Assembly: GCA_022788105.1 (NCBI GenBank)
Contig: JALEVZ010000053.1
Coordinates: 36,858-100,857 of the forward strand
Length of the DNA: 64,000 nt
Source of the DNA: Prevotella sp.
GTDB taxonomy: Bacteria > Bacteroidota > Bacteroidia > Bacteroidales > Bacteroidaceae
Direction of reading: 5' to 3'
Shown in pieces: positions 337-62,210 of the stretch (positions within the stretch are counted from its first letter, which is position 1; each line of letters starts with the position of its first letter). The position numbers and the translations under genes are program-made. Under the pieces are notes generated by a model that saw only the letters and a program-made list of their open reading frames with translations, did no database searches and had not been told where the DNA came from.

Positions 337-408
337 GCAAGCTAGCTATGAATTGTAGCCACGCCAGCTAAGAATCGTAGGCAAGCTGACCCTGAATTGT
401 AGCCACGC
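337..408. repeat. 22-bp-period degenerate tandem array (A-B-A-partial B)
   Basis: gcaagctagctatgaattgtag / ccacgccagctaagaatcgtag / gcaagctgaccctgaattgtag / ccacgc. Confidence 0.8.
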
Positions 409-486
409 GCGTTTTTACCTTCCGAAGCTTTGGGTTGTCAGATTTAATGCTTATCTTTGCCAACATACCAACTAAAAACAAGTAAT

Positions 487-1176
487 ATGGAAACATGTTC
501 AAAGAAGTCGAGAGTGCGCGAAGAGTTTGAGAAGGCACTCGCAAAAGCAGAATCTACTGAATTCAAAGCTACGAAAGAGATGCTTGACCTCTACTCCGAC
601 GTGGTGTGCGGATGCACGCTTGTGGCAGAGGAGAACACCAAACAGATGGGCGGACCGACATGGCAAAACGCAGAACTGTGCCGCACCATGCTGAAATATG
701 CAAAGGTTTTGGAGCAATATACAGAGGTAGGCAATATCACAGACACGCTATACAAGGTGTCAGAACGCATGGCTGACGCACTGTACTATCACCCACGATT
801 GAAAGCCGAAGTGCTGAGGCTCACCATACGCATACTTCACGACATAGAGGCGGAGACGGGGCACGACCTCAGTTCGACCGACCACTTCATGAGTGAACTG
901 TCTGCTCTTGAGCGCAACATACACTTCGCAGACAATGGAATGTTTGACAACATAGACCAACAAGGGACGCTGAAAGTCGACCCTGTGGAGTGGACCGAAG
1001 CTTTTGAAAACGTAATAGACGAGGCAGAACGCAAGGCTTTAGACAAGCTGGCAGACGTTCCACGCGGCATGGGGTTCTGTCACGCCTACTGGGCGGAACT
1101 GGGCGACGCACTCTATGAGCTTGGAGTGAGCTGGAAATCTCCGGCACAGATGAATCCACGCTGCCTCTTCGACTAA
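487..1176 (+). CDS. Hypothetical protein with a C-terminal GMGFCHxYW…WKSPxxMNP motif
   Basis: ORF 457..1176; start moved to ATG 487 because TATCTTTG (-7 box) lies at 452-459. Confidence 0.75.
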   Translation: METCSKKSRVREEFEKALAKAESTEFKATKEMLDLYSDVVCGCTLVAEENTKQMGGPTWQNAELCRTMLKYAKVLEQYTEVGNITDTLYKVSERMADALYYHPRLKAEVLRLTIRILHDIEAETGHDLSSTDHFMSELSALERNIHFADNGMFDNIDQQGTLKVDPVEWTEAFENVIDEAERKALDKLADVPRGMGFCHAYWAELGDALYELGVSWKSPAQMNPRCLFD

Positions 1177-1180
1177 TGCA

Positions 1181-1290
1181 AACAGGCGCTAAGCATTAAT
1201 CAAACAGATGCCAGGCGCTAACAAATCAGGCGCTAAGCATTAATCAAACAGCCGCCAGGCATTAACAAAACAGCCGCTAAGCAAATATAA
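1181..1290. repeat. 22-bp tandem array, 5 units, alternating variants
   Basis: aacaggcgctaagcattaatca / aacagatgccaggcgctaacaa / atcaggcgctaagcattaatca / aacagccgccaggcattaacaa / aacagccgctaagcaaatataa. Confidence 0.88.
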
Positions 1291-1328
1291 AAAACGGGCC
1301 ATGTGCATATCACAGCACATGACCCGTT
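1289..1328 (-). terminator. Intrinsic terminator of the etf-acd operon
   Basis: AACGGGcCATGTGC…GCACATGaCCCGTT stem with a left A-tract (U-tract on the minus strand). Confidence 0.7.
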
Positions 1329-1370
1329 AATTGTTTATATAGCTATGGGGCATCCACCCCTATCAGCTGT

Positions 1371-3077
1371 TTACTCCGCGCGGAAGTTCGGAAGGTCTTC
1401 CTTGATGAAGTTCATGATGTAAGCATGCTCACCAAAGACGTTGGCCTGAGCCATGCGCACATACACATTGGCACTCTTGGCGAAGAGTTCGGCAGAGCGT
1501 GTGGCGTCTTCGAGGATGAGAAGCGACATGATAATCTCGCAAGTCATGTTGTAAAGACGGCGTGCGAGGAAGTCGTGCATCTCCTGGTCCTGTGCCTCCT
1601 TGACATATTCGCGAGCCTGCTCGTAGAGCTTCACCATCTCCACTACGCGCGTCTTCAGCGGCTGCAGCTCCTCTGCCACTTCCTTCTCCAGCATCTCTTT
1701 GATGATGGTGAGGTATGTACCGTTAGAGATGTAGCGTATGGCGGCAACCACCTGGAGCTGTGTTGTACCCTCGTAGATAGAGAAGATGCGTGCGTCGCGG
1801 TACAGACGCTGGCACTTGTACTCCATGATGAAGCCCGAACCGCCATGCACCTGTATGGCGTCATAGGCGTTCTGGTTAGCATATTCAGAGTTCATACCCT
1901 TTGCCAACGGTGTGAATGCGTCGGCAAGACGAGAATACTTCTTCAGCTCCTGACGCTCCTCGGCGGTGAGCTTACGCTCGCGCTGGATGTCTTCAAGAGC
2001 CTTGTAGATGTCTACGTAGCGTGCTGTCTGATAGAGGATAGAGCGTCCTGCGTCGAGCTTTGCCTTGATGCGAGCAATCATGTCGTACACAGCGGGGAAC
2101 TTTACTATCTCGGTATCGAACTGCTTGCGCTCCTTAGCATACTTCAAAGCCTCGTCATAAGCAGCCTGGCTCACACCTACCGACTGTGCGGCGATGCCGA
2201 GACGAGCACCGTTCATGAGTGCCATCACGTACTTGATAAGTCCAAGACGTGTGCTGCCGCAAAGCTCTGCCTTTGCGTTCTTGTACACAAGCTCACATGT
2301 TGGTGAGCCGTGGATGCCGAGCTTGTGCTCGATGTGGCGCACCGTCACACCGCCGTCGCGCTTGTCATAGATAAACATTGACAGTCCGCGACCGTCGCGT
2401 GTGCCCTCCTCAGAGCGTGCAAGCACGAGGTGGATGTCTGAGTCGCCGTTGGTGATGAAACGCTTTACGCCGTTCAGACGCCATGTGCCGTCCTCGTCCT
2501 GTGTAGCCTTGAGCATCACGCGCTGCAAGTCTGAGCCTGCGTCGGGCTCGGTGAGGTCCATAGACATGGTCTCTCCGGCGCAAACACGGGGGATGTATTT
2601 CTGGCGCTGCTCCTCCGATCCGAACTCATAGAGAGTCTCGATGCAGTCCTGCAGCGACCAGATGTTCTGGAAGCCAGCGTCTGCACACGACACAATCTCC
2701 GAAGCCATAGAATACGGAGTGATAGGCATGTTCAAGCCGTTGTAACGGCGCGGCATAGAGATGCCCCACAGCCCGGCCTTGCGTGTGGCGTCGAGGTTCT
2801 CGTAAGTCTTAGCAGCATAGTGCATGCGTCCGTCCACGAGGTGCGGACCTTCGAGGTCTACGTCCTCAGAGTTTGGCTCGATAATGTTTGCGGCTATGTC
2901 GCCGGTGATGTCGAGCACACGCTTATAGTTCTCGATAGCGTCCTCGAAATCGACGGGCGCATCCTCATATTTGTCTTTATCTGCGTAGTTGCGCTCCTTG
3001 AGCTCAACGACCCGCTTCATTTCCGGATGATTCAAATAGAAGTCATACTCCGGATGGTCTGTATAATAGTTAGCCAT
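1371..3077 (-). CDS. Acyl-CoA dehydrogenase (long Bacteroidales type, ETF partner)
   Basis: MDLTEPDAGSD, GVKRFITNG, IQVHGGSG and YEGTTQLQ motifs; downstream of etfBA. Confidence 0.93.
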   Translation of the reverse strand: MANYYTDHPEYDFYLNHPEMKRVVELKERNYADKDKYEDAPVDFEDAIENYKRVLDITGDIAANIIEPNSEDVDLEGPHLVDGRMHYAAKTYENLDATRKAGLWGISMPRRYNGLNMPITPYSMASEIVSCADAGFQNIWSLQDCIETLYEFGSEEQRQKYIPRVCAGETMSMDLTEPDAGSDLQRVMLKATQDEDGTWRLNGVKRFITNGDSDIHLVLARSEEGTRDGRGLSMFIYDKRDGGVTVRHIEHKLGIHGSPTCELVYKNAKAELCGSTRLGLIKYVMALMNGARLGIAAQSVGVSQAAYDEALKYAKERKQFDTEIVKFPAVYDMIARIKAKLDAGRSILYQTARYVDIYKALEDIQRERKLTAEERQELKKYSRLADAFTPLAKGMNSEYANQNAYDAIQVHGGSGFIMEYKCQRLYRDARIFSIYEGTTQLQVVAAIRYISNGTYLTIIKEMLEKEVAEELQPLKTRVVEMVKLYEQAREYVKEAQDQEMHDFLARRLYNMTCEIIMSLLILEDATRSAELFAKSANVYVRMAQANVFGEHAYIMNFIKEDLPNFRAE

Positions 3078-9218: not shown

Positions 9219-9431
9219 TATTCCAAAGTCATGCTTTCTTCATTCCAAAGTCATGCTTTCTTCATTCCAAAGTCATGCTTTCTTCATTCCAAAGTCATGC
9301 TTTCTTCAATCCAAAATCATGATTCCTTCATTCCAAAATCATGATTCCTTCATTTCAAAGTCATGCTTTCTTCATTCCAAAGTCATGCTTTCTTCATTCC
9401 AAAGTCATGCTTTCTTCATTCCAAAGTCATG
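9219..9431. repeat. 22-bp tandem array, about 10 units of CATTCCAAAGTCATGCTTTCTT
   Basis: Units start at 9219, 9241, 9263…9417; two internal variants read AAAATCATGATTCC. Confidence 0.95.
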
Positions 9432-9446
9432 TCTTTTTCTTCAAAA

Positions 9447-11190
9447 TCAAATCATAAGACTCTTCAATATTCCTACACCCTTCTTCAAGGCGTTGCTTTT
9501 CTTTTTGCCTTTGTCGGCTTTATTGCGCACATTCTTCACCTTTTGTTTGGTGTTAGAGAAGCTTGGACCGCGCCAGCGCACGGGGTGCAGATATCTTGAT
9601 TCGAAATAGAGGTGCTGGCCAGTAAACTTGTCTTTCACCTCGGTAGAGCCGTTGTTGCCCTTCATGCGATATACCCACACACGGTCGTAGAAGCCAAGTG
9701 TAGAGTCGATGGGGCCAACGTTATTGGGCAAGGTAGATAGGGCGTCGTGGCGCGTGTAGTTGGTGATGAATTCTGCTTTGTCGTCGTCCGACACCGTCTG
9801 CGCCCATCCCGTGTGCTGCGTCATAGTAGCGCGCTCGGCAGTTGCCAGCGCCAGCTCAATAGAACAGGGGGCGTTGGGGGCGAGAGTGGTCTTGGTCACG
9901 GGGTCGATAAGCTCTAATGCCTCCATAAACGCCATCGGTTCCTTTGCCCATTCCTTGAGTTGAGGGCTGTCGCTATAGGCTGCGAGGTTAGAGTTGTAGT
10001 CGGTATAGGTGTACTTCGAGTTCTGCTCAATGTAGCGCATGGCACGATAGATGAGCGTTCCCATCTCCTGACGCGTCATGGCGGCAGTCATGTCGGGATT
10101 GCCATCGGCAATGTCGGCAAAGAGATTAAGCTTCTCTTCATCGGCCTCTTTGCCCGTCATCTCCTTTATCAGCTTCATTGCTATCGATGCAACCTGCTGG
10201 CGTGTGGCGGTAACGGTGTAGTCGTTGCCCAACAGCTGCTCGTCAATGAGGTTGTCAACAAGGGCGCGATTCACCTCATCTTCTGTCCAAAGGCTCTTTT
10301 TCACGGTGCTACGGGCGGCAGCGTAAACATGCCGGGCTGAGGCGTTGTTGTCAACTTGGCATTGTCTTCGCGCATGTTCAGCTGAGCCTCCATGTGTTTA
10401 CGGAATAAAGCCAGTGACCCGTCAACACCAGCCATGCGGCGGTGCTTCTCGGTAAGATGGCGCTGCTCATAGTTGTAAGACATGCCGCACCAGATGCAGC
10501 TCTGCCAGTAGATATGCTCGCCAGCGGCATTGGTGCCCACATAAGCCTGGTCTGTAGCAAGGTTGGCTTCAAAGAAATGAACGCCCGGCGTGTACGACTC
10601 GCCTCTTCCTGTTTCATGAACTGGAAGGTGTGTTTGGGGTTACACTCACACTGTCCGCATATGCTGCACGAATAATACACCTTCGGGTTTTGCGTACAAG
10701 TGTAATACTGCACTTGTCGGTCGGCAGTGCATATCTTAGCCACAAAGTTGTGCTTGCGGCATGGATTCTTAGTAGCCTTCAGTCCAGCCTTCTGTGCTTC
10801 TGCCACATTGCCAGTATAGGTTCTTACGGTGTAGGGCGGGAACTTGGCATGACGCGCCATCAACGCTCTTACAGCTTCGCCCTGCTTGGCTGGCACACAC
10901 AGCGTGGCATCGCCCGCAAGGGACATGGTGCTATGATAATAATAATAGCTGTCGGGCCATATGGGGTTCTTCATGCCATCGTTCAGCACGCGCATAAACG
11001 TCACAGCATCTACTTTGTCGCTGAGCCACACCTCCTTCAAGAAATAGTAGCCACTGCCATAATTGCTCAGCCGGTCGGCAAAGTCTTTATAAATATCCTC
11101 GTTGCTGGTATCGACCATAACCTTTCTAAGGAACACACGGTTGGGACCTTCAAACTGTGACAGCGGGTTGTCGGTGTCCGAAATGGTCAT
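9447..11190 (-). pseudogene. Frameshifted gene with Cys/His-rich repeats and C-terminal SLH-like domains
   Basis: Three co-linear frames joined by shifts near 10600 and 10315; YYSCSICG and YWQSCIWCG repeats; SLW…EV…A, TRQ and D…WAK SLH-like motifs. Confidence 0.7.
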
Positions 11191-11197: not shown

Positions 11198-11433
11198 GAA
11201 GAAGAAAAAACGGGAAGTGGAAGAAGAAAAAACGGGGAAAAGATGATAAAAAGGCAGGAAGCAAAAGACGAAAAGGCAGGAGACAAAAGACGAAAAGGCA
11301 GGAAACAAAAGACGAAAAGGCAGGAACCAAAAGACGAAAAGGCAGGAACCAAAAGATAAAAAAACAGGAAGCAAAAGGCGAAAAGGCAGGAAACAAAAGA
11401 CGAAAAGACAGGAAGCAAAAGACGAAAAGGCAG
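11198..11433. repeat. 22-bp tandem array, 10-11 units of AAAAGACGAAAAGGCAGGAA(A/G/C)C
   Basis: Visible period of 22, degenerating toward 11198. Confidence 0.95.
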
Positions 11434-13247: not shown

Positions 13248-14993
13248 CTACTGAAGCTTAAAGGTCACAGGCAGCAAGTATCGTGAGCGCACAGCATCTC
13301 CATTTCTCTTGCCAGGAATCCATTTCGGCATGCCACGCACCAGACGCAAAGCCTCCTTGTCGAGCATCGGGTCTACGGAACGGGCAAGAGTGATGTTTGA
13401 CAAACTACCGTCCTTCTCCACAGTAAAGATCACAATCACACGACCCTGAACTTCGTTTTCACGCGCCGCGGCAGGATAGTGAAGATTGTTACTCAAATAT
13501 TCATAAAGCGCAGGGGTACCACCCGGGAATTCAGGTTGCTGTTCAAAAATATCATGCACCTTATTGTTGCTTGCCGACGGCTTACTTTCAGGCTGCGTGG
13601 CATGTGTCGCAGAACTTGCAGTAGATGTTGCTGCGGTTGCCGACGGCTTCGTGGGCTGTGCCGACGGTACAGGCTTGACAGGCTGCTGCGCTGCCGACTG
13701 CTGCGCCGTCTCCTCCTTTTGAGGTGCAGAGACAGGCTTGTTGTCCTGCTCCTGATTCTGCTCCACGACGTCAGGCTCATCAGCAGACGTAGCTACACTG
13801 TCTGCCACCCCTGTGCTCTCGGGCTGCACGGCGGCAGCGGTGTCACCCTTAGAGCTAAACAAGAACATGCCTACGACAAGTCCCACTACCAACGCTACAA
13901 TGACACAGAGCACCTTGTTGCGCATCAACCAGCTCTCCTCTTCTTCGCCGTCGTCCTGCACGTCGCCGCCATCGCCGCCGGTTCCGTTCCCTGGCACGTC
14001 CACGTCGTCAAACCGAGTGCCCTCCTCGCTACGCGCCGACGCACCGCCTGTCTTGCTCGCGCCATGCACAGGAGTCCGCTTCGTCAAGCAGTCGACAAAC
14101 TCATCCACCGTCTGCCAGCGGTCCTTCTTCATCGGAGACATGGCTTTGGCTATACACTCAACGGTCTGTTCGGGTATGCCAAGCTGTAGCAGGCTGTCTG
14201 CCGGAAATCCGTCGTTCAGTATTTCGGAGGCGTCGGGCGGCCGTTGGCCCGTCAACATCTTGTACATCGTGCCGCCGAGAGCATAGACATCCATCATCGT
14301 AGGGAAGTCTTTGCCGTCGCGGAAGCTCGCCTGTTCCAACGGGGCGTAGCCCGGTGTGCCAGCGCCCACCTTTGTGCTCGACTCAGGCTCGCCGCCCTGC
14401 GTGTACTGCTTCGACAGTCCGAAGTCGATGAGCACGGGCGTGCCGTCACCCCTCATCATCACGTTTCCGGGTTTCACGTCGAGGTGTAGCATCTGCTTAG
14501 AGTGCATAAACGCTAAGGCGGCACCTATCTGTTTCACCGTGGCGATGGCTTTGGCAAGAGACAGGCGACCCTGCGGCGACTTCGCGATAAGGTCGTCGAG
14601 GCTCATGCCGTCGACATATTCCATAGCGTAGTAGGTCGTGCCGTTGGCACAAAACGCCTCGAGTACCTTCACGATGTTGGGGTGATGTAGCTGACTGAGG
14701 TTGCGCGCCTCACGCTCGAACTTGCCGCGATAGTACTGAAACAGTCCGCCACTGTCGGTCGTGCCGCTTGTCACGGTGCTGTTCTCGCGGCCGTTCACCT
14801 CTTTCATAAAAAACTCCTTCACAGCCACATACATGTTGCTGTCGAGGTGTCCGAGCGCGCCTTTCATCTCCACCTTTGCCTTATAGGTGATGCCGAAGGT
14901 GCCCTGTCCGAGCACTTTCATTATCTTGTAGTCGTAAGCCTCGCCGTGCAGAATGGTGTCTGGGGCGAGGGCTTGTGTCCTGTTATTGTCCAT
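13248..14993 (-). CDS. Ser/Thr protein kinase - TM - TonB C-terminal domain fusion
   Basis: GQGTFG, VAVKE, HLDVKPGN, DFG, GTPGYAP; TM; YPAAA…QGRVIVIFTVEKDG…PVTFKL (TonB_C). Confidence 0.9.
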   Translation of the reverse strand: MDNNRTQALAPDTILHGEAYDYKIMKVLGQGTFGITYKAKVEMKGALGHLDSNMYVAVKEFFMKEVNGRENSTVTSGTTDSGGLFQYYRGKFEREARNLSQLHHPNIVKVLEAFCANGTTYYAMEYVDGMSLDDLIAKSPQGRLSLAKAIATVKQIGAALAFMHSKQMLHLDVKPGNVMMRGDGTPVLIDFGLSKQYTQGGEPESSTKVGAGTPGYAPLEQASFRDGKDFPTMMDVYALGGTMYKMLTGQRPPDASEILNDGFPADSLLQLGIPEQTVECIAKAMSPMKKDRWQTVDEFVDCLTKRTPVHGASKTGGASARSEEGTRFDDVDVPGNGTGGDGGDVQDDGEEEESWLMRNKVLCVIVALVVGLVVGMFLFSSKGDTAAAVQPESTGVADSVATSADEPDVVEQNQEQDNKPVSAPQKEETAQQSAAQQPVKPVPSAQPTKPSATAATSTASSATHATQPESKPSASNNKVHDIFEQQPEFPGGTPALYEYLSNNLHYPAAARENEVQGRVIVIFTVEKDGSLSNITLARSVDPMLDKEALRLVRGMPKWIPGKRNGDAVRSRYLLPVTFKLQ

Positions 14994-15321: not shown

Positions 15322-15486
15322 TTGACAAAATGATAGTGCCCTTTTGGGCGTGTCAAAGGGGCCTAATGAGCTTGTCACTACGGCCCTTTGAGCGTGTCAT
15401 TTGGGCCTAATGGGAAATCCGCGAGGCTTTTAACAGACGTTAAGAATTGGCGTCAGATTTTACCTCCATATTGTAGCAAAATGTCA
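15322..15486 (-). repeat. 165-bp dispersed element, copy 2 (inverted)
   Basis: TTGACAAAATGATAG…TTAAC-agac-GTTAAGAATTGGCG…ATGTCA. Confidence 0.9.
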
Positions 15487-16917: not shown

Positions 16918-18441
16918 ATGGAACTGATTATTGGCATAACAGCGCTGATGGCAGGCATCGTCGCTGGCACATTGATTGGCATGATGGGCCAAAAGGGCAG
17001 ACAACAGGCGCTGCAAACGCAGAACGACATGCTGCAACAGCAGCTCGCCGACGCTAAGAACGAGGCGCAGCGACAGCTCAACGATGCTAAGACTGAGAGC
17101 CAGCGACAGCTCGCCGAAGCTAAGGAGGAGGGTAAAAACCTGCTCACCGACGCGAAAAACGAGGCACAGCGACAGCTCGACAAGGCGAAAGAGGAAGCAC
17201 AGCGACAGCTCAACGACGCGAAAGAGGAGGCGCAGCGGCAGCTCGACAAGGCGCTGAAGGACAAGGACGAAGCATGGAAAAAGGTGCTCGACAGCCAGGA
17301 GAGCAGATTCAACGAGACGCTCAACCGCATGACGGAGCAGATGAAAAACGCTACCAACGACATGCTGAAAGAGCGACAGAAGGAGTTTGCCGACTCCAGC
17401 AACGAACAGCTTGGACTCATTGTCACACCGCTGCGCGAGACCATAGACAAGATGAAGCTCACCATGAGCGACACCACGCTGAAGCAGACGGAGATGAGCA
17501 GCGCGCTGAAGCAGAACATAGAGATGGCGATGCGACAGTCTATGGCGGCGAAACAGAGTGCCGACGAGCTGGCGAGGGCACTGAAGCACGGCAGCAAAGT
17601 GCAGGGCGACTGGGGCGAGACGGTGCTCGACGAGCTGCTCACGGCGCAGGGGCTGCAACGTGGCATACACTACGACACGCAGGCTGTCATACGCGACGGG
17701 CACGGCAACGCCATACATACCGACGAGGGCGGCACACTGCGTCCCGACGTCATACTGCACCTTGACCAGCGCCGCGAGGTGATAATAGACTCTAAGGTGT
17801 CGCTGACGGCATTCATGGACTATGCCAACGCCGACAACGAGACAGACCGCCAACGCTATCTGAAGGCTCATATCGACAGTCTACAGAAGCACGTGAAGGA
17901 GCTGTCGGAGAAGGACTACTCGTCGTATGTGCTGCCGCCGAAGGTGCGCATGGACTACGTCATAATGTTCGTGCCACACACTGGAGCGCTATGGACGGCT
18001 CTCAACGCGCAGCCAGACATGTGGCGCAAGGCTATGGAGAAGGGTGTGTTCATTGCCGATGAGCAGACGCTCTTCGCCGCATTGCGCATCATCAACATGA
18101 CGTGGACACAGATTAGACAGGCAGAAAACCACGAGGAGGTGTACCGACTCGCCAACGAAATGATTGACCGCGTGGGGCAGTTTGTGAAGAAGTTCAACGC
18201 CATAGGCAAGGCGCTGAAGTCTGCTGGCACCGCCTTTGAAGACGCAGAGCGTAAGCTTCAGCCCAGCGGGCAAAGCATTCTGCTTACTTGCGCCAAGCTA
18301 CAGAAGCTCGGTGCGAAGCAGAGTGAGAAGAATCCGCTGCCGCAAATCATCGACCTCGACGACATTCCTGCCCTCGAAGAAGGCACGACAGATAGCGACG
18401 ACAATGCCACAACAAATAGCGACGACAATGCCACGACATGA
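16918..18441 (+). CDS. rmuC: DNA recombination protein RmuC with an expanded 11-aa-repeat coiled coil
   Basis: N-terminal TM; QGDWGE, RPDV, IIDSKVSL, DYVIMFVP. Confidence 0.92.
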   Translation: MELIIGITALMAGIVAGTLIGMMGQKGRQQALQTQNDMLQQQLADAKNEAQRQLNDAKTESQRQLAEAKEEGKNLLTDAKNEAQRQLDKAKEEAQRQLNDAKEEAQRQLDKALKDKDEAWKKVLDSQESRFNETLNRMTEQMKNATNDMLKERQKEFADSSNEQLGLIVTPLRETIDKMKLTMSDTTLKQTEMSSALKQNIEMAMRQSMAAKQSADELARALKHGSKVQGDWGETVLDELLTAQGLQRGIHYDTQAVIRDGHGNAIHTDEGGTLRPDVILHLDQRREVIIDSKVSLTAFMDYANADNETDRQRYLKAHIDSLQKHVKELSEKDYSSYVLPPKVRMDYVIMFVPHTGALWTALNAQPDMWRKAMEKGVFIADEQTLFAALRIINMTWTQIRQAENHEEVYRLANEMIDRVGQFVKKFNAIGKALKSAGTAFEDAERKLQPSGQSILLTCAKLQKLGAKQSEKNPLPQIIDLDDIPALEEGTTDSDDNATTNSDDNATT

Positions 18442-33487: not shown

Positions 33488-33546
33488 TTATAACAATGTG
33501 GAGAGAAAAGCGAAAATACACAAAGAAAGCAACACGGCGCTTTTAG

Positions 33547-42684: not shown

Positions 42685-42849
42685 TTGACAAAATGATAGC
42701 ACCCATTTGAGATTGCCAAAGGGCCGTAGTGACAAGCCCAAAGGAGCCCTTTGGCGTCCTCAAAGGGGCCCTTTGAGGATGCCGCGGGACTTTTAACAGA
42801 CGTTAAGAATTGCGTTTACAAAATCACGTTATTTCCTTACATTGTGTCA
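42685..42849 (-). repeat. 165-bp dispersed element, copy 5 (inverted)
   Basis: TTGACAAAATGATAG…TTAAC-agac-GTTAAGAATT…GTGTCA. Confidence 0.88.
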
Positions 42850-42965: not shown

Positions 42966-43119
42966 CTTCCCAGCCGCCGCCATAGCACCTCTCCGCTGCA
43001 GCCGTAACATCTCTCCATTACCACCACACTCCCTCTCCATTGCCGTCACACTCCCTCTCCGCTGCCGCCGTAACACCTCTCCATTGCCGCCACAGCTCCT
43101 CCCCGCTGCCGTCACAACA
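42966..43119. repeat. 22-bp tandem array, 7 degenerate units (CCTCTCC(G/A)(C/T)TGCCGCC…)
   Basis: Units at 42966, 42988, 43010, 43032, 43054, 43076, 43098. Confidence 0.88.
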
Positions 43120-43257
43120 CCCTTTTGCAGCGTTATTTTCAAAAAAATGGCATCGCTTTTTTACGTTTATGCACTCGTCAGCGACATTTAATCACGTTTT
43201 CTGACAAACACGCACAACACTGCCCCACACAGTGTTGCACATTCCAAATATTATTCG

Positions 43258-43555: not shown

Positions 43556-45358
43556 ATGAACAACAACATGACAACAAGTCTCCCCGTAGGCACCATACTC
43601 CACGGCGAGGCATACGACTACAAAATAACGAGAATACTCGGACAAGGGTCGTTCGGCATCACCTACCAGGCAAAGGTAGAGATGAAAGGAGCTCTCGGCA
43701 CACTCGACAGCAATATGTATGTGGCGATAAAGGAGTTCTTTATGAAGGAGGTGAACGGCCGCGAAGGGTCTACTGTGACCAGCAGCAGCGACTCGAAGGG
43801 TGGACTCGTAGACTACTATCGCAAAAAGTTTGAACGCGAAGCACAAAACCTTAGCACGCTGAAACACGACAACATAGTGCGCGTACTGGAGTCGTTCCAC
43901 GGCAATGGAACGGTCTACTACGCCATGGAGTTTATCGATGGACAAAGCCTTGACAACACCATCATCAACTCACCGAAGGGCCATCTCGACGAGACGACGG
44001 CGCTGTCGTACACACGACAGATAGGCGCCGCACTATCATTCATGCACAATCGCGGCATACTTCACCTCGATGTGAAGCCTGCCAACGTGATGGTGAGACG
44101 CGACGGAAGGGCTTTCCTCATCGACTTCGGACTGGCAAAGCTCTACACTTCGGACGGAGAGCCGGAGTCAAGCACTAAGGTTGGAGCAGGCACACCGGGT
44201 TATGCACCGCTCGAACAGGCAAGCTACCGCGAGGGAAAGGGATTCCCCTTGGTGATGGACGTGTACGCTCTCGGCGCCACTTTGTTCAAGATGTTAACTG
44301 GAAACCGCCCACCAGAAGCGTCGGAGATACTCAACGACGGCTTCCCCACAGGCGAACTTATGCAGGCTGGCACCTCCACCAGCTTCATTGCATGTGTCAA
44401 AAAGGCGATGGCACCGCTGAAGTCGGACCGCTACCAGAACGTAAACGAATTTCTTACAGCCCTATCCGCAGCTGCTGCGGGCTGCGACATCAACGAAGAA
44501 GCGACCTCTATCAACACCGACTCCTCCACTGTGACCGACGAACCAGAAATTGTTGACGTGGAGCGCGACAACGCACGAAACGCACAAAAGGCAGCAGCGG
44601 AGCGACAAAGACAGATGGAGGCGGAACGCCAAAGACGTCAGGAGGCAGAGAGAGCAAGACGTCTGGAAGAGGCAAGAAAACGCCAAGAGGCTGAAAATCG
44701 ACGTCAGGAGGAGGCAAGAATGCGCCAAGAGGCAGAGAGACAAAAGCGTCAAGAAGAAGAGAAACGTCTCCAAGCCGAGCGCCAAAGACAACCCAGGCGC
44801 GAGGCAGACATAGACACCGACCCCATAGACAAGCCATCGTCTAACAACCTTATGCGCAAGGTCATCATCTCAGTGTTTGTGTTTATAGGCATAGCAATAT
44901 GCTATCCCAGCATCAAAAGCTGCGGTGGGGTCGGCAACAACGGCTCGTCAAGTTCGACATCTGCATCTGTTGAAGATGTAAAGAACCCGATAGGCACCAT
45001 CAACTACGCCGACTCTGCCGACAATAAGTTCATATGGACGGGCGAAGTACTCAACGATGTGCCCTACGGCATGGGACGTGCAGTCTATCTTAGTGGCGAC
45101 AAAGACAACAGAAAGTCATACGACGGCCGCATGGTGGACGGACAGCGCCACACTAAAGAAGGAGAGACGGCAAAGCTGATTTACAACAACGGCAACGAGT
45201 ACACAGGCACGTTCGTCTACGACAACCTCGGTACGGGCACGTTCATAGACAAGAATAACGGTCTGCGCTACGAAGGATCGTTTCTTGATAATTCACCATA
45301 CAAGGGCACGTGGTACTATCTAAGCGACGGCAGTGTGTACCAGGTAGTGAAGCCATAA
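43556..45358 (+). CDS. Ser/Thr protein kinase - charged helix - TM - MORN-like C-terminal region
   Basis: GQGSFG, HLDVKPAN, DFG; E/R/Q-rich linker; TM; YDG/YTG/YEG repeats. Confidence 0.88.
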   Translation: MNNNMTTSLPVGTILHGEAYDYKITRILGQGSFGITYQAKVEMKGALGTLDSNMYVAIKEFFMKEVNGREGSTVTSSSDSKGGLVDYYRKKFEREAQNLSTLKHDNIVRVLESFHGNGTVYYAMEFIDGQSLDNTIINSPKGHLDETTALSYTRQIGAALSFMHNRGILHLDVKPANVMVRRDGRAFLIDFGLAKLYTSDGEPESSTKVGAGTPGYAPLEQASYREGKGFPLVMDVYALGATLFKMLTGNRPPEASEILNDGFPTGELMQAGTSTSFIACVKKAMAPLKSDRYQNVNEFLTALSAAAAGCDINEEATSINTDSSTVTDEPEIVDVERDNARNAQKAAAERQRQMEAERQRRQEAERARRLEEARKRQEAENRRQEEARMRQEAERQKRQEEEKRLQAERQRQPRREADIDTDPIDKPSSNNLMRKVIISVFVFIGIAICYPSIKSCGGVGNNGSSSSTSASVEDVKNPIGTINYADSADNKFIWTGEVLNDVPYGMGRAVYLSGDKDNRKSYDGRMVDGQRHTKEGETAKLIYNNGNEYTGTFVYDNLGTGTFIDKNNGLRYEGSFLDNSPYKGTWYYLSDGSVYQVVKP

Positions 45359-45384
45359 AGGTAATAAGAACACGACAACACGAC

Positions 45385-47250
45385 ATGAACGAACTTAAAA
45401 TAGGCGCCACCCTACAAAACGGCAAGTACCGCATAGAGCACGTACTGGGTCAGGGTGGCTTCGGTATAACCTATCTCGCCACGCAAACAACACTCGGTTG
45501 CAAGGTGGCTATAAAGGAGTTTTTCTTTCAAGACTGCTGCGAGCGCCACGCTGACGACTCACGTGTGAGCGTGATAACGGCAAGCAAGCAGGAGCTGGTG
45601 GACAAGTTCCGCCGCAAATTCCTAAAGGAAGCGCGGCTCTTGCTTGCCATCAACCACCACAACATAGTGCGTGTGATGGACGCATTCGAAGAGAACGACA
45701 CCGCCTACTATGCTATGGAATACATCGAGGGCATCTCGCTCTCACAACTCATAAGCCAGAAAGGACGCCTCACGGCAGCCGAAACGCTCACCATAACCGA
45801 CTCCGTGGGCCAGGCTCTCGTCTATCTGCACGCACGAAACATAAACCATCTCGACATCAAGCCTGCCAACATAATGATTGAGAACGGCACGGAGCGCGTG
45901 CTACTCATCGACTTTGGCGTGTCGAAACAGTACGATCCAGAGACAGGACAGAGCACCACGACCACGCCGGTAGGTGTCAGCCACGGCTACGCGCCACTCG
46001 AACAGTACAACAACGGCGGCGTACAGACATTCTCTCCACAAAGCGACGTCTACGCCCTCGGTGCCACAATGCTGAAGATGTTGACCGGAATAACGCCCCG
46101 AAACGCCGTAGAGCTGTCGCAACAAGGCGGTCCCACCATCGCGGCGGACGTCCCCGTAAACTTCGCGGCAGCCATACGCGCCGCCATGCAGCCCGTAAAG
46201 GCAAACCGTCCGCAGTCTGTACAGCAGCTGTTGACCATCCTCCACGACGGTCCAACAGATGAAGAGGCGACGGTGGTAGGTGCAATTGGCAATGCAAACG
46301 GCACCTCGGGAGCAGCAAACGGAGCCTCCAACGCGACCAATAATGACGCAGCGGGAGCAGCAAACGGAGCCTCCGGCAACGGCAGCAACGCCTCAAGGTC
46401 TGCCAACGGCAAAGCCAAGCAGATGTTTATTGGCCTCGCACTGGCACTCGTCTTTGTCGGTTCAATCTTCTATCTCGGCACCGACCGCAACAAGACAGAC
46501 ACAACAGACAACATCATGGCTGCCGACAGCGACACCGTAGCGATAGACTCCGTAGCGGTAGAAGAAGACACCAACGTCTACACCGAGAGCTTCAGCCAAA
46601 GCATAAAAGGCAAGATGGACAAAACAAGTCTTAGCATTGAATATCCCACATCGGGTCCAGAGCTGCTCGTGCAGAACATACGCGAGTGGATAAACGAGTC
46701 GTTAGGCGGAAAATATAACGGCGATTTGAGCGACGGAAAAGCCCTCTTCAACTTATACTTCGGCTCCTTGAGACGCGAGATGACAGAAAATTCGGAATAC
46801 GAAAACTACAACCAGGTGACCATAAAGAAGCTGTATGAAAACGACAAGATAGCCACGTTCGTCTGCGAATCCTACTTCTACGGCGAGGGAGCAGCCCACG
46901 GCATGTCGAGCACCATGGGCGTAACGTTCCGCAAATCAGACGGACGCAAGTTCACGGTCAGCCTGCTCGATGGCTCCTACAAGTACCAAAGCGAGATAAA
47001 AACGGGCTTAAAGAAATACTTTGAGCTATCTTCCGACGAAGAGCTCATGGGCCGTTTGATGCTTAACAAAGACGCCGGCAGCGAGATACCGTTCCCCAAA
47101 AATGACCCGTGGATAACGGCAGCAGGCGTCGTGTTCTGCTATTCGGAATACGAGATAGCATGCTACGCCGACGGCATGCCTACCTTCACTATACCCGAAA
47201 GCGTAATAAAGAAGAAGAGTGCCGCCACCACACAGACATTCCTTGAATAG
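45385..47250 (+). CDS. Ser/Thr protein kinase - TM - DUF3298/RsiV(PdaC)-like domain
   Basis: GQGGFG, HLDIKPAN, DFG; TM; YGEGAAHG and YSEYEIACYADGMP motifs. Confidence 0.88.
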   Translation: MNELKIGATLQNGKYRIEHVLGQGGFGITYLATQTTLGCKVAIKEFFFQDCCERHADDSRVSVITASKQELVDKFRRKFLKEARLLLAINHHNIVRVMDAFEENDTAYYAMEYIEGISLSQLISQKGRLTAAETLTITDSVGQALVYLHARNINHLDIKPANIMIENGTERVLLIDFGVSKQYDPETGQSTTTTPVGVSHGYAPLEQYNNGGVQTFSPQSDVYALGATMLKMLTGITPRNAVELSQQGGPTIAADVPVNFAAAIRAAMQPVKANRPQSVQQLLTILHDGPTDEEATVVGAIGNANGTSGAANGASNATNNDAAGAANGASGNGSNASRSANGKAKQMFIGLALALVFVGSIFYLGTDRNKTDTTDNIMAADSDTVAIDSVAVEEDTNVYTESFSQSIKGKMDKTSLSIEYPTSGPELLVQNIREWINESLGGKYNGDLSDGKALFNLYFGSLRREMTENSEYENYNQVTIKKLYENDKIATFVCESYFYGEGAAHGMSSTMGVTFRKSDGRKFTVSLLDGSYKYQSEIKTGLKKYFELSSDEELMGRLMLNKDAGSEIPFPKNDPWITAAGVVFCYSEYEIACYADGMPTFTIPESVIKKKSAATTQTFLE

Positions 47251-47334
47251 AACACAAACAAGCACCATATAGCACACAAGCAAGCACCATATAGCACACA
47301 AGCAAGCATCGAATAGCACACAAACAAAGACCAC
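47247..47334. repeat. 22-bp tandem array, 4 units; the first contains the kinase stop codon
   Basis: atagaacacaaacaagcaccat / atagcacacaagcaagcaccat / atagcacacaagcaagcatcga / atagcacacaaacaaagaccac. Confidence 0.9.
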
Positions 47335-47342
47335 TCCACAAT

Positions 47343-49604
47343 ATGAACGAACTAAAGACAGGCTTTGCCCTGCAAAACGGCAAATACCGCATTGAACGCG
47401 TGCTGGGTCAGGGCGGCTTCGGCATAACCTATCTTGCCGTGCAGGTAAACCTCAACCGCAAGGTAGCCATAAAAGAGTTTTTCATGAAGGAGCTGTGCAA
47501 CCGCGACGCTACCACATCTCACGTGTCGGTGCCGTCGACAGGCAGCGCCACCACGGTGGAACGGTTCCGCAGCAAGTTCGTGAAGGAAGCGCAAACCATA
47601 GCCGGACTCGACAATCCGCACATCATTCGCATACACGACATATTCAATGAGAACGGCACCGCCTACTATGTCATGGACTATCTTGGCAACGGTTCGCTCT
47701 CCGACCGTGTAAAAAGCGGCGGACCAATGGACGCGCAGACAGCCACAACCTACATCCAGCAGATTGGCGAGGCACTCACTTACCTGCACGCCCGCAGCAT
47801 CAACCACCTCGACATCAAGCCGTCTAACATACTCATCAACGCCAGCGGAGAAGCCATAGTCATAGACTTCGGACTGTCAAAGCGCTACGACGAGAGCGGC
47901 ACGCAGACCAGTTCGACGCCCGTTGGCATCAGTCACGGCTACGCACCGCTTGAGCAGTACCAGCCGGGAGGCGTCAGCACGTTTTCACCAACTGCCGACA
48001 TCTACGCCCTCGGCGCCACACTCTTCTATCTGCTCACCGCCACAGCGCCGCCCAACGCTACCACATTGCTCTACGACGGCTTCCCCACCGCCACACTGAC
48101 GAGCCACAACGTGGCGCCGACGATAGCCATCATAGTAGAGAAAGCCATGCAACCGCTACCGAAAGACCGCTACGCGAGCGTGGCAGAAATGACCAGTGCG
48201 CTCGACAAGGCTCTCTCTACAAAAACCGACGAAGCCACCGTGACAGCCAACACCAACCCCAGTGAGGCAACCATAATAGGCGCAACGCCAACCGTGGCAC
48301 GCCCCAAACCAACTACTACAAGCTCAAAGACAACCGCTTCAAGCCCCAAGACGCCAGCCACAACGACCCCAAAACCAACCGCTTCAAGCCACAACGCGCC
48401 AGCCACAAAGCCCCACATACAGTGGCACTGGAAGCGCGCGGCGTTGGTGATGCTGCTTGAATACGTGGCAGTGATAGTCCACACAAGCATCTTCAGCCAA
48501 TACTCCTGGTTCAAAGGGCTATATTACACCTTCGTGGGATATGAATCTCCCGACATGAGAGACATCGCATTCTACGTCCAAGACCTGCTCATCACAGCGC
48601 TATTGATTGCCGCCCTCTGCGCCGCAATATACCGTTGGCGCCATCTGTCGCTACACTTCATAGCACGTTGGGCAGCAGTTGTCTTCATACCGGCGTTTTA
48701 TCCATTCAGCATGGTGATTGATACGTATTACCTTTACGGCTACTACATCAATTCGTACACAGCCTTTTTTGCACTCTCTCTGCTGTCAGCCTTCGCCTTC
48801 GCGCTGCCCATGAAGCTGGAAGAGGGGTCTATAAGCAAGACCCTAAAGCGCCACAAGGTGCAGACACTATGGATTGTGCTTATACTCTTCAGCATGGCAT
48901 GCGGCACAGCAGTGCGTTTGCAATGGTATTATAGCGAGCGCAAACGCTTTGTAAAACCTGTCGATTTAGGATTGTCGGTCAAGTGGTCGCCAGTAGGAAC
49001 AAACAGCACCACAGGCTCACTACAACTTGAAGGCTGGCCGTCCTACACCTTCTCCAACAACGACTGCAGCCCTAACAAAGACGCAGACGACCCTACTGAT
49101 TACGGCGAATACATCTTCAAAGAGATAAACATACCCACCAAAGATTGCGACCTGAAGCGAATCCCGATAAATGGGAATAACGATCACCCCAACACCTTAT
49201 TAAAATATTACGGTGACGGATGGCGCATGCCGACGTATGCAGAGATGAAAGAACTCGTCGAAAAGTGTACATGGGACTGGGTCAAGATACCCGAAGGCTA
49301 CTACGGAGAGACCTACGGCTACAGGGTGACAGGTCCAAGCGGACGCTCCATACTGCTCCCGGCGAGAGGATATCTACGACTCGACAAGCGCAATGGCACA
49401 TACTACGCAAGCAAGCGACGTGAAGGCCACGACGCCTACTACATGACTGGCACCGTCAACCACGCCAAACCCGACGGGCTCTACGTCCACTACTTAGCGA
49501 TAGAGAGCAACGACTCGCTCGGCACACACACCGCCAAAATGCGTAGCATGTCTATAGAAGACGCGCAACACATCGCTATGTGCATTCGCGCCGTACACGA
49601 CTGA
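47343..49604 (+). CDS. Ser/Thr protein kinase - multi-TM - VDLGLSVKW/WRMPT (DUF1566-like) domain
   Basis: GQGGFG, HLDIKPSN, DFG; about 5 TMs; VDLGLSVKW, GWRMPT…EL, GPSGRSILLPA. Confidence 0.87.
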   Translation: MNELKTGFALQNGKYRIERVLGQGGFGITYLAVQVNLNRKVAIKEFFMKELCNRDATTSHVSVPSTGSATTVERFRSKFVKEAQTIAGLDNPHIIRIHDIFNENGTAYYVMDYLGNGSLSDRVKSGGPMDAQTATTYIQQIGEALTYLHARSINHLDIKPSNILINASGEAIVIDFGLSKRYDESGTQTSSTPVGISHGYAPLEQYQPGGVSTFSPTADIYALGATLFYLLTATAPPNATTLLYDGFPTATLTSHNVAPTIAIIVEKAMQPLPKDRYASVAEMTSALDKALSTKTDEATVTANTNPSEATIIGATPTVARPKPTTTSSKTTASSPKTPATTTPKPTASSHNAPATKPHIQWHWKRAALVMLLEYVAVIVHTSIFSQYSWFKGLYYTFVGYESPDMRDIAFYVQDLLITALLIAALCAAIYRWRHLSLHFIARWAAVVFIPAFYPFSMVIDTYYLYGYYINSYTAFFALSLLSAFAFALPMKLEEGSISKTLKRHKVQTLWIVLILFSMACGTAVRLQWYYSERKRFVKPVDLGLSVKWSPVGTNSTTGSLQLEGWPSYTFSNNDCSPNKDADDPTDYGEYIFKEINIPTKDCDLKRIPINGNNDHPNTLLKYYGDGWRMPTYAEMKELVEKCTWDWVKIPEGYYGETYGYRVTGPSGRSILLPARGYLRLDKRNGTYYASKRREGHDAYYMTGTVNHAKPDGLYVHYLAIESNDSLGTHTAKMRSMSIEDAQHIAMCIRAVHD

Positions 49605-49646: not shown

Positions 49647-49811
49647 TGACACATTGCTACGTTTTAGTGCGTTCTGCTTACGCCAATTCTTAACGAGTGT
49701 TAAAGCAGCAGCGAACTTCCCACTACGCCCCTTTGGGCTTGCCACTACGGCCCTTTGACATCGTCATTAGGCCGTAGTGACAACGCCAAAGGGGTGCTTT
49801 CATTTTGTCAA
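49647..49811 (+). repeat. 165-bp dispersed element, copy 6
   Basis: TGACACATTGCTAC…TTAAC-gagt-GTTAA…TCATTTTGTCAA. Confidence 0.9.
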
Positions 49812-51811: not shown

Positions 51812-51855
51812 ACGATAACATAACACGTCAAGAACGATAACATAACACGTCAAGA
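51812..51855. repeat. Exact 22-bp tandem duplication in the response regulator 5' UTR
   Basis: acgataacataacacgtcaaga x2. Confidence 0.95.
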
Positions 51856-51857
51856 AT

Positions 51858-52544: not shown

Positions 52545-52560
52545 GCAAGAGAAGGAGCTT

Positions 52561-52626
52561 CTTTGGAGGCGAGATTTGGTATCTTTGGAGGCGAGATTTG
52601 GCATCTTTGGAAGCGAGATTTGGCAT
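52561..52626. repeat. 22-bp tandem array, 3 units of CTTTGGAGGCGAGATTTGGCAT
   Basis: Units at 52561, 52583, 52605. Confidence 0.95.
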
Positions 52627-52689
52627 CCAATAAAGCGCCATTAGCCCCATTACGAAGCACAAATAGTCTTATAACAAAAATCAAAAACT

Positions 52690-56080: not shown

Positions 56081-56140
56081 AACGCGCCAATAGGCTGCAC
56101 CATAAAGCAGCCTGCCGCGTAAAGCAAGCGCAAACACGAA

Positions 56141-56191
56141 ACAAAGAAAAACGGTCTTTTGCATAAAGAAAGCAAAAGACCGTTTTTCTTT
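56141..56191. terminator. Terminator after the TraB/GumN gene
   Basis: AAAGAAAAACGGTCTTTTGC…GCAAAAGACCGTTTTTCTTT. Confidence 0.8.
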
Positions 56192-56354
56192 ACATTATGA
56201 TAGAAAACAAAGCGCTTTTGTAACGCCAATTCTTAACGTCTGTTAAAAGCCCACAGAGATTGCCAAAGGGGCCAAATGGGCTTGTCACTACGGCCTAATG
56301 AGCTTGTCACTACGGCCCTTTGACAACGCCAAAAGGGTGCTATCATTTTGTCAA
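56190..56354 (+). repeat. 165-bp dispersed element, copy 7 (head degenerate)
   Basis: CGCCAATTCTTAAC-gtct-GTTAAAAG, four units and tail at the conserved spacing. Confidence 0.85.
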
Positions 56355-56417
56355 ACGGCACTAACGGGAAAATGATCACCGCCCGACCGTTTTTCAAAAC
56401 CTATAGATTCTGTCGGG

Positions 56418-56505
56418 CGGCAGCATGCCATCAGCTCTACAGCGATATATCATCGTGCCCGCGGCAGCATGTCATCAACTTTGCAGTACCATGCCATCAG
56501 ACCTT
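56418..56505. repeat. 22-bp degenerate tandem array, 4 units
   Basis: cggcagcatgccatcagctcta / cagcgatatatcatcgtgcccg / cggcagcatgtcatcaactttg / cagtaccatgccatcagacctt. Confidence 0.72.
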
Positions 56506-56517
56506 CATCGTCCCTCT

Positions 56518-59205: not shown

Positions 59206-59370
59206 TGACACATTGTCACGATTCCGTCGTTTCTGCTTACGCCAATTCTTAACACATGTTAAAGCCGCGGTGGTTTTCCCACTACGGCCCTTTGACATCG
59301 CCATTAGGCCGTAGTGACATCGTCAAAGGGCCGTAGTGAGAAGCCCGAAAAGGCCCTATCATTTTGTCAA
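59206..59370 (+). repeat. 165-bp dispersed element, copy 8
   Basis: TGACACATTG…TTAAC-acat-GTTAA…TATCATTTTGTCAA. Confidence 0.9.
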
Positions 59371-60372: not shown

Positions 60373-60450
60373 TTCTTCTAAATAATGATTTTTATTCTTC
60401 TATATAACGATTTTTTTCTTCTATATAACTAATTTCTTCTTCTATATGAT
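60373..60450. repeat. 21-22-bp tandem array, 4 units (TTCTTCTATATAA…)
   Basis: Core at 60373, 60395, 60416, 60437. Confidence 0.75.
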
Positions 60451-60490
60451 GACTATGTCGTTTCAAAGCACATCTTTTTTGATTCCACAT

Positions 60491-60520
60491 CCTGCCCCCT
60501 TCGCTGTCGCAGAGGGGCAG
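60491..60520 (-). terminator. Hairpin between metY and cysK
   Basis: CTGCCCCcT…AGGGGCAG. Confidence 0.45.
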
Positions 60521-60534
60521 AATGGGCTGTGCTA

Positions 60535-61824
60535 TCATATCTGGTCGAACGCCTGCTGCAGGTCGTCGATGATGTCGTCGATATGCTCCACGCCGATGCT
60601 GAGGCGTATTGTCGACGGCGTGATGTGCTGCTGTGCCAGCTCCTCGGGCGACATCTGCGAGTGAGTGGTGGTGGCAGGGTGAATGACGAGGCTCTTCACG
60701 TCAGCCACATTGGCAAGAAGCGAGAAGATATGGAGCGAGTCTATGAACTTCCATGCTGCCTCTTCGCCGCCTTTTATCTCAAAGGTGAAGATGCTACCGC
60801 CGCCGTTAGGATAGTATTTCTGGTAGAGAGCATGGTCGGGATGGGTAGGCAACGACGGGTGGTTCACCTTCTCTACCTTCGGGTTGTGGGCGAGATAGTC
60901 CACCACCTTCAGCGCGTTGGCGACGTGACGCTCTACGCGCAGCGAGAGAGTTTCAAGGCCCTGGAGTAGAATCCAGGCGTTGAAGGGCGAGATAGCAGCA
61001 CCGGTATCGCGCAGCACCACGGCACGAATGCGTGTCACGAAGGCTGCCTTACCTGCTACATCGGCAAACACGGCACCGTGATAAGAGGGGTCGGGCTTTG
61101 CCAGTGTGGGGTATTTGTCGGCGTTTGCTTTCCAATCAAAGGTTCCACCGTCTACAATCACACCGCCAAGACTTGAACCATGGCCTCCGATAAACTTCGT
61201 TGCAGAGTGTACCACGATGTCGGCGCCGTGCTCGATAGGACGAATAAGGAACGGCGTGCCGAAGGTGTTGTCTACAATAAAGGGTATGTTGTGCTTGTGA
61301 GCAACGGCTGCTACAGCCTCCAGGTCGGTGACATCGGAGTTTGGATTGCCGAATGTTTCGGCGTAAACCACCTTTGTATTGGGCTGGATAGCAGCCTCGA
61401 GAGCAGCCAAATCGTTGACGTTGACAATGGTGTTGGTGACACCTTGCGTGGTGAGGGTGTGGGTTATGAGGTTGAACGAGCCTCCATACAGATTGTCAGC
61501 AGCCACGATGTGGTCGCCCTCCTGCACTATGTTCTGCAGTGCATAAGTCACAGCGGCAGCGCCAGAAGCCACGGCAAGGGCTGCCACACCACCCTCCAGG
61601 GCTGCGATGCGCTCCTCAAACACGCCCTGTGTGGGGTTGGTCAGACGGCCGTAGATGTTGCCTGCGTCGCGCAAGGCAAAGCGGTCAGCAGCATGCTGGG
61701 AGTTGCGGAACACGTAAGAGGTGGTCTGATATATAGGCACTGCACGCGCGTCAGTGGTCGGATCGGGGTTTTCTTGTCCTACATGAAGCTGGAGTGTCTC
61801 GAAATGAAGTTTCTTGTTACTCAT
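60535..61824 (-). CDS. metY: O-acetylhomoserine aminocarboxypropyltransferase/sulfhydrylase
   Basis: [36 protein letters not shown]; start [10 protein letters not shown]. Confidence 0.92.
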
Positions 61825-61953
61825 AAATTGTTTTCCTTTCTTTTTGCTTTTTGCCCCTGCTGCCCGCGTCATGTGGCTGTTTTGACAAGTTCTGTCTGCC
61901 GTAGCGGCGGCAGCGGAAGGCGTTGTTAATACGATATTTTCATTCTACTGTTG

Positions 61954-61961
61954 CAAAGGTA
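61954..61961 (-). promoter_or_regulatory. -7 promoter element of metY (TACCTTTG)
   Basis: TAnnTTTG on the minus strand. Confidence 0.6.
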
Positions 61962-62090
61962 CGGCTTTTTCGGCATATAGAAAATAGCATAAACGGGGCA
62001 TTCCGCATACCATATTCGTGGTATTTAGGCATAAACCGTGTTATATTGACACCTAAACGGGCATTTATATACACCTTTTATTATTTTTAA

Positions 62091-62210
62091 AGGAGAAATG
62101 ATGGGAGAAATGAAGAAGAGGGATGGTAGATAGAAAGGGAGGGAATAGGAGGAAGAAAGAAGAGGGATGAAAGTAAGTAAGAGGAGAGATGACAGAAAGG
62201 AAGAGATGGT
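62091..62210. repeat. Purine-rich degenerate repeat with 44-bp recurrence
   Basis: agaagagggatg at 62114 and 62158. Confidence 0.55.

Follow-up and report, generated by a model that had tools for sequence, protein, structure and literature searches.

Why should tandem repeats that have no sequence in common share one unit length? The question is raised by a stretch of 64,000 nucleotides from Prevotella sp. (GenBank assembly GCA_022788105.1, contig JALEVZ010000053.1, positions 36,858 to 100,857 of the forward strand; hereafter the window), in which an earlier note, made from the letters alone, had listed intergenic arrays with a period of 22 or 44 bp. Tandem Repeats Finder (TRF) was run on the window, and loci below its threshold were checked as spaced direct repeats. 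The spacing of 22 or 44 bp was verified in this way at all 17 loci on that list, and the finding extends beyond them to genome, species and order alike. The genome is a 2.49-Mb metagenome-assembled genome (MAG) of 130 contigs with 51.7% GC and a completeness of 90%. Its Dxs protein finds its best match, with 82% amino-acid identity, in a Prevotella MAG, which places it in the Prevotellaceae, and the sequencing runs containing this DNA are chiefly pig-gut metagenomes. We consider it probable, though only by a modest measure, that the arrays are neutral minisatellites which arose in situ and are propagated by slippage, that their unit length reflects a lineage-specific mutational length preference, and that selection filters nothing more than their survival.

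A unit length shared by unrelated sequences

Across the genome, the smallest period of 641 array clusters found by TRF was 22 bp in 322 cases, 21 bp in 48, 23 bp in 18 and 44 bp in 15. The program returned 879 rows for the real genome versus 5 in total for a third-order Markov copy of it. An alignment-free count of 12-mers recurring at a given lag yielded 3456 at lag 22 versus 193 at lag 21 and 226 at lag 23. Hence, the comparison of the period histogram with a shuffled control, which the earlier note had proposed, confirmed a genome-wide peak at 22 with harmonics at 44, 66 and 88. Arrays with the 22-bp period make up 1.4% of the genome and about 9% of the DNA outside a crude map of open reading frames (ORFs). 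On this map 291 of the 322 period-22 arrays are intergenic, and the intergenic periods 21, 22 and 23 stand in the ratio 17:279:16. When every array with a TRF score of at least 30 was masked, excess self-identity persisted in the remaining non-coding DNA at lags 22, 44, 66 and 88; these residual signals are fossil arrays.

In vivo, two turns of the helix measure close to 22 bp, and iterons are classically spaced at 22 bp. The period might therefore be under selection for a function or a helical phase, either because the arrays serve as protein docking platforms that present one helix face every two turns, or because only whole-turn insertions are tolerated in promoters. Such a role would suit the palindromes contained in one dispersed repeat family of this genome, family A, and in some families of other genera. 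However, a one-turn peak is absent (15 at lag 11 versus 3456 at lag 22) and lag 33 is merely a local excess (128 versus 73 at lag 32 and 1 at lag 34), about 27-fold below lag 22, for which reason selection for promoter helical phase was rejected. Moreover, the unrelated units contain neither dyad nor motif, the arrays preferentially occupy sites devoid of promoters, namely the 3' sides of genes and convergent gaps, and copy number and unit sequence are unconstrained, with a single copy left in some strains. Selection of this kind is hence improbable as the source of the period, and the DNA-binding protein reading two helical turns that had been put forward earlier is an unlikely explanation for the unrelated arrays.

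How unrelated the units are was seen from clustering 298 consensus units of period 22 at an identity of at least 17/22, with rotation and reverse complement allowed. Eighty-eight of them fall into family A and 193 are singletons, while the GC content of the units spans 5% to 77%. The earlier statement that the units share no consensus is therefore correct for the listed arrays themselves; genome-wide it has to be restricted, because 88 of the 298 arrays represent one family. The core of family A is CAAAGGGCC and its complement, both orientations are present, and 128 of 164 flanks are shared between copies. Family A is a REP- or MITE-like dispersed element (repetitive extragenic palindrome; miniature inverted-repeat transposable element). 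In contrast, 366 of 432 flanks of the non-family arrays are unique, which argues against their delivery by a mobile element; these arrays arose where they now stand. Circular autocorrelation and the best-dyad score detected no motif, dyad or 11-bp sub-period beyond shuffles in the 211 non-family units, and the non-family arrays look like ordinary intergenic sequence after duplication.

Among known repeats, the arrays comply with the description of minisatellites or variable-number tandem repeats (VNTRs), because head-to-tail units of about 10-100 bp follow each other without spacers and strains differ by whole-unit copy numbers. They are bacterial minisatellites with a sequence-independent and lineage-specific unit length. 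The full-text literature searched contained no description of such a rule beyond BrickBuilt. Bacterial VNTR loci used in multiple-locus VNTR analysis, for example the mycobacterial interspersed repetitive units (MIRU), are likewise head-to-tail, mostly intergenic and change by whole units through slippage. In a typical genome the unit lengths of VNTRs are heterogeneous or tied to a single sequence family, whereas here one length dominates over unrelated sequences and accounts for about 9% of the non-coding DNA. BrickBuilt of Porphyromonas gingivalis is a minisatellite/MITE of one sequence family with 19 copies, which have conserved leader and tail segments and terminal inverted repeats similar to those of the insertion sequence (IS) IS5; a sequence-independent length rule was not described for it (Klein et al. 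2015, PMC4596501). The present arrays resemble BrickBuilt in that both consist of tandem repeats of 22-23 nt which lie between genes of a Bacteroidales genome, lack spacers and differ between strains by whole units, and family A resembles it additionally by being dispersed, having shared flanks and forming hairpins. Unlike BrickBuilt, about two thirds of the roughly 300 arrays here have unrelated units and unique flanks, and their only common property is a length that shifts between 21, 22 and 23. The non-family arrays possess no common leader or tail, as indicated by their 366 unique flanks among 432, and 193 units are singletons.

Family A is also similar to REPs and bacterial interspersed mosaic elements (BIMEs), being a short palindromic unit that is clustered, occurs in both orientations and is intergenic. 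The hairpin typical of REP/BIME is found in family A only, since the non-family units show no dyad excess, and the biology of REP/BIME and the REP-associated tyrosine transposases (RAYTs) does not explain the unrelated arrays. No family A core lies within 2.4 kb of the sole Y1_Tnp gene of the genome (C96:422-763), and a RAYT link was rejected for family A, because this one Y1 transposase does not adjoin its units. Iterons such as those of R6K and pPS10 are 22-bp units as well, which form a handful of near-identical sites beside the rep gene and are bound by its product. The arrays share with them direct repeats at 22-bp spacing; an identity with iterons was rejected in view of more than 300 chromosomal loci between ordinary housekeeping genes, unrelated units and free copy number. 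Viewed in register, the array units abut with no spacers between them, which led to the rejection of a CRISPR (clustered regularly interspaced short palindromic repeats) array. Finally, Borg extrachromosomal elements reportedly carry many unrelated, rapidly evolving tandem repeats between and within genes, as does this genome; we know of no report of a single unit length for Borg repeats.

Strain polymorphism and lineage-specific periods

About 30 conspecific metagenome contigs, 97-99% identical to the window, were found through identical proteins and used for three multiple alignments, which cover window positions 8580-62544 with about ten strains each. The steps between distinct allele lengths comprise 22 of 1 bp, 22 of 22 bp, 5 of 21 or 23 bp, 8 of 43-46 bp, 3 of 64-66 bp and 1 of 88 bp. 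Hence, the copy-number changes in steps of 22 between strains, for which the earlier note had proposed a comparison, were observed, with 39 of the 62 steps larger than 1 bp at or about multiples of 22. For example, the array at 9220-9436 (9.8 copies) has eight length alleles in ten strains, of lengths 20, 42, 64, 86, 108, 130, 152 and 174, all differences being multiples of 22. An exact two-copy 22-bp duplication directly before the ATG of a response-regulator gene (51812-51856) occurs in 1, 2, 3 or 4 copies depending on the strain, and a Logan contig from another pig-gut run and study has one additional 22-bp unit at 51811. Between the response-regulator and histidine-kinase genes (52560-52637) the number of units per strain is 1 to 7, and about 20 variants of the unit occur. 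At 56101-56144 the window contains a single 44-bp unit, of which 7 of 10 other strains have two diverged copies; this single unit is a collapsed array. Some strains are down to one copy at given arrays. The arrays are real, hypervariable and can die by collapse to one copy. Slippage, which had been thought not to favour one unit length, accounts for these copy-number changes, but it does not explain the unit length.

A genome assembled from metagenomes into 130 contigs at 90% completeness invites the suspicion that assembly or binning created the arrays. About 30 independent assemblies from different assemblers and samples, however, contained them too, with whole-unit differences, and arrays are present also in Logan contigs and in complete genomes of related genera, so that we assign a practically negligible probability to an artefact.

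The period is a property of lineages. Among 80 Prevotellaceae loci (1.47 Mb), 70 arrays of period 22 were counted. In 80-kb samples of 20 genera from the same GTDB family, the period mode was 22 in the genera g14, g15, g16, g18, g19, g26 and g27; g1 has a mode of 22 as well. The mode was 21 in g20, with five arrays of unrelated units, and in g31, with nine arrays belonging to four sequence families, while both 21 and 23 were found in g22. Twelve genomes from other families of the order displayed a broad hump of periods between 15 and 25 with a mode of 21. A plasmid search brought up no Prevotella replicon; the Bacteroides and Phocaeicola records that it gave served as named samples. At lower density, both periods occur in them: Bacteroides finegoldii has 22 as well as 21, and in Phocaeicola massiliensis there are three arrays of period 22 along with two of period 21. 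The BrickBuilt repeats of P. gingivalis measure 23 nt, and tandem direct repeats of 41, 23 and 22 nt have been noted for its strain W83 (PMC4596501). Thus, the idea of a fixed, sequence-independent length holds across genome, species and lineage, but the value of 22 is not universal, since periods of 21 or 23 occur in other genera. In the nearest sampled species, with about 70% nucleotide identity in genes, the orthologous gaps were not alignable and other arrays were present, which is why array births could not be polarised.

These comparisons bear on the possibility that the period was inherited. All arrays could descend from a dispersed founder element of 22-bp units, for which family A here and BrickBuilt in P. 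gingivalis are candidates; rapid mutation and concerted evolution would have erased the similarity and kept the register, and the period of each lineage would be that of its founder. One family indeed comprises 88 of the 298 arrays and has shared flanks, the unit diversity within arrays is far above the 1.2% divergence of their flanks, and the minority periods of 21 and 23 could stem from 1-bp indels that were later homogenised. However, flanks should outlast hypermutable arrays, and those of the non-family arrays are unique. Collapse to one copy within the species further implies that few arrays are old enough to have lost all similarity, and a founder element would explain neither the same period in genomes with unrelated dispersed families nor the excess of 21-bp repeats inside genes described below. 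Descent from one founder is hence an unlikely origin of the common length.

Gene context and the origin of the length rule

The non-family arrays lie at a median of 37 nt from the upstream stop codon versus 84 nt from the next start, and convergent gaps are about 1.9-fold enriched over divergent ones. Moreover, 26 arrays run over a stop codon and cover at most the final 44 bp of the ORF that it ends, while 6 overlap a 5' end. A duplication across the stop codon leaves the protein intact, so that survival on the 3' side is expected under a neutral filter, and the placement of the arrays matches this prediction. As 22 cannot be divided by 3, intergenic sites are where arrays would survive, and within genes only the in-frame 21-bp variant would be kept. 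In ORFs of at least 200 amino acids, in-frame periods decrease from 12 to 15 to 18 bp and then rise at 21 bp (22 arrays versus 12 at 18 and 10 at 24). The same bump recurs in the 80 Prevotellaceae loci (10 versus 4 at 18 and 0 at 24) and in the 20 genera (11 versus 5 and 3). In the 22-bp genera, intergenic arrays are 22 bp and in-gene arrays 21 bp long. RNA contigs covered parts of the window only.

From the in-gene 21-bp bump, the fossil signal, the unique flanks of non-family arrays and the clustering of isolated duplications at 21-23 bp we infer that the length rule is mutational in nature. According to the favoured explanation, the arrays would be non-coding minisatellites (VNTRs) arising at their present sites, and whole units would be gained or lost via replication slippage or unequal exchange. 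The length copied by a step that creates tandem duplications, or preferentially propagates them, would be about 22 bp in Prevotella as well as in a number of sister genera; elsewhere in the order, other genera and families would use 21 bp, and some 23 bp. The duplication process may operate genome-wide, with selection merely filtering its outcome, so that the survivors would lie between genes, mostly just past stop codons, and old arrays would decay to ordinary-looking intergenic DNA. As preferred candidate mechanism, a protein-defined distance of about two helical turns might fix the duplicated segment, either by staggered nicks followed by fill-in or by a fixed template-switch distance in the replisome. 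More tentatively, and with considerable doubt, one can imagine that Bacteroidales possess a dedicated, length-measuring duplication activity, a dimeric nicking or template-switching protein that spans about two helical turns, accepts any sequence, produces 21, 22 or 23 bp according to the version of the protein in each lineage, and represents a major source of intergenic DNA and of seven-residue insertions.

Does the rule act when a duplication is born or when it spreads? Of the isolated exact two-copy duplications in the genome, 3 have a length of 21 bp, 4 of 22 bp and 2 of 23 bp, whereas the other lengths between 17 and 30 bp together account for 2; the four isolated 22-bp duplications have 0, 1, 2 and 8 bp of junction homology. 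Sixty-eight of the 72 exact 22-bp repeats are situated inside larger imperfect arrays and only these 4 are isolated. Since births are few and none was seen as derived among the strains, the ruler could act on expansion or persistence instead of birth. Duplications of many lengths would then arise, only units of about 22 bp would expand and persist, and the peak would be built at expansion, for instance if slipped loops of that size could escape repair or be stabilised in the lineage. The prevalence of exact repeats within larger arrays fits this idea, as does the very rapid change of copy number. On the other hand, the isolated duplications, though few, cluster at 21-23 bp, two-copy in-frame repeats in genes share the 21-bp bump, and we know of no repair system that discriminates loop sizes at a resolution of 1 nt. 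A ruler acting solely at propagation appears rather unlikely.

Several points weigh against our mutational explanation. The clean de novo births, 9 in 2.5 Mb, are too few to prove a ruler at the birth step, and the alignments, about 55 kb with about ten strains each, revealed none that was a derived event. The in-gene 21-bp bump is only about twofold and was compared within Bacteroidota alone; a general preference for seven-residue protein repeats could also produce it. The modes of the genera are based on only 80 kb each, and all gene maps are a crude longest-ORF call. Furthermore, a 19-bp array with 9.7 copies in the closest sampled species (L082, G001:C74, 1164-1347) demonstrates that the rule is not absolute in the genus. 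Finally, no enzyme or complex was identified as the ruler. Of the dedicated 22-bp process suggested earlier, the length rule itself has stood and looks mutational rather than functional; no 22-nt footprint of a nuclease, a polymerase or a protein that binds DNA emerged from the analysis.

Two further candidates were tried and rejected. Exact direct repeats 100-6000 bp apart have no 22-bp peak, although IS copies are often missing from metagenome-assembled genomes, and target-site duplications as transposon footprints were discarded on the basis of these spaced repeats. End joining was rejected as no Ku gene was found; the Ku search gave no match in this genome of 90% completeness, so absence is not proven.

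If the length rule is mutational, it would represent a signature of mutation not described before, in one of the major orders of gut bacteria, about a tenth of the intergenic DNA of this genome would be shaped by the process, and seven-codon insertions would be fed into proteins. It would also offer a handle on the component of replication or repair by which two helical turns are measured, for which the shift between 21, 22 and 23 among genera is a natural experiment for phylogenetic profiling. The very fast polymorphism among strains provides ready material for strain tracking in metagenomes. In practical terms, the arrays break short-read contigs and several copy-number alleles can coexist per sample, which has consequences for how Prevotella genomes are assembled and binned.

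Arrays and neighbouring features in the window

In the window, a period of 22 (or 44/66) was found at 21 loci, together with one period-21 array. Six 22-bp loci were absent from the earlier list, and all of them belong to family A, the dispersed hairpin-forming 22-bp family. They comprise unit pairs at 15360-15412, 56270-56317 and 59293-59339, an array of 2.9 copies at 26995-27057, an element with palindromes based on CAAAGGGCC / GGCCCTTTG at 42700-42790, and an element at 49716-49800 which folds into a long hairpin (z = -8.3 at 49712-49800). Three listed loci under the TRF threshold are direct repeats spaced 22 or 44 bp, namely a 28-nt repeat with 44-bp spacing at 31208-31279, an exact 15-nt repeat with 44-bp spacing at 35012-35070, and a 26-nt repeat in three copies with spacings of 44 and 22 bp at 56417-56508 (listed as 56418).

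Among the remaining arrays, whose period is 22 bp unless stated otherwise, a unique unit is present in 3.0 copies at 344-408, five copies with a 44-bp higher order stand at 1174-1283, and 2.5 copies at 33881-33935. A 44-bp array of 3.1 copies lies downstream of dxs (38004-38138), and the minority period of 21 bp is represented by 3.5 copies at 60373-60447. The degenerate array at 33400-33488 has 4.0 copies; a strain difference of 66 bp was found in the alignment block 33339-33668 that contains it, and is not localised to that array. Strains vary in steps of 21-22 bp at the purine-rich array of about ten copies at 11199-11433, by 22 or 44 bp at 29220-29327 (4.9 copies), and from 0 to 110 bp in 22-bp steps at the C-rich 22/44/66-bp array at 42988-43121. 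A second purine-rich array at 62100-62204 (4.8 copies) differs by 0 to 199 bp between strains. The array at 47247-47327 (3.7 copies; strains 0 or 22 bp apart) occupies the whole gap between two kinase genes, beginning at the upstream stop codon.

Three consecutive Ser/Thr protein-kinase genes lie at 43556-49604, the third of which has an 810-bp internal deletion in one strain; a fourth kinase gene, a kinase-TonB_C fusion, is located at 13248-14993. An in-frame 21/45-bp repeat lies within a 753-aa Ser/Thr kinase gene at 48303-48415 on the plus strand. Another in-frame repeat, of 33/66/99 bp, occurs at 17041-17253 in an RmuC-family gene (16918-18441).

In the 52560-52637 array, a small set of recurring positions, mostly A/G, distinguishes the unit variants and is combined in many ways across strains, which suggests recurrent mutation or conversion shuffling that greatly outpaces the 1.2% divergence of the flanks. 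At 28054 the window lacks 88 bp that are present in 9 of 10 other strains, one being unreadable there; the deletion sits between copies of a word of about 22 nt, with spacings of 66 and 22 bp and unrelated intervening sequence. The gene at 9447-11190 on the minus strand, bordered on both sides by hypervariable 22-bp arrays, is a single ORF of 581 aa in most strains and is split in the window by 1-bp deletions at 10316 and 10598. Its longest ORF extends into the 11199 array, and two strains have a 787-bp insertion at 11188 with a 785-aa call.

Repeats of other periods exist as well. The unit TTTTACCT is repeated about 4.2 times at 35127-35160 and occurs at 41 other loci of the genome, thus forming a fixed dispersed element with 42 copies, and another group of 8-bp arrays (units AAGTAGAC / AACTTGTC) attains 21 copies. 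In contrast to the 22-bp arrays, both sets are sequence families. Seven intergenic arrays of period 33 have 3.5-3.9 copies each and mostly different units; several contain ACACTTTT-like words, and these may belong to a separate dispersed element.

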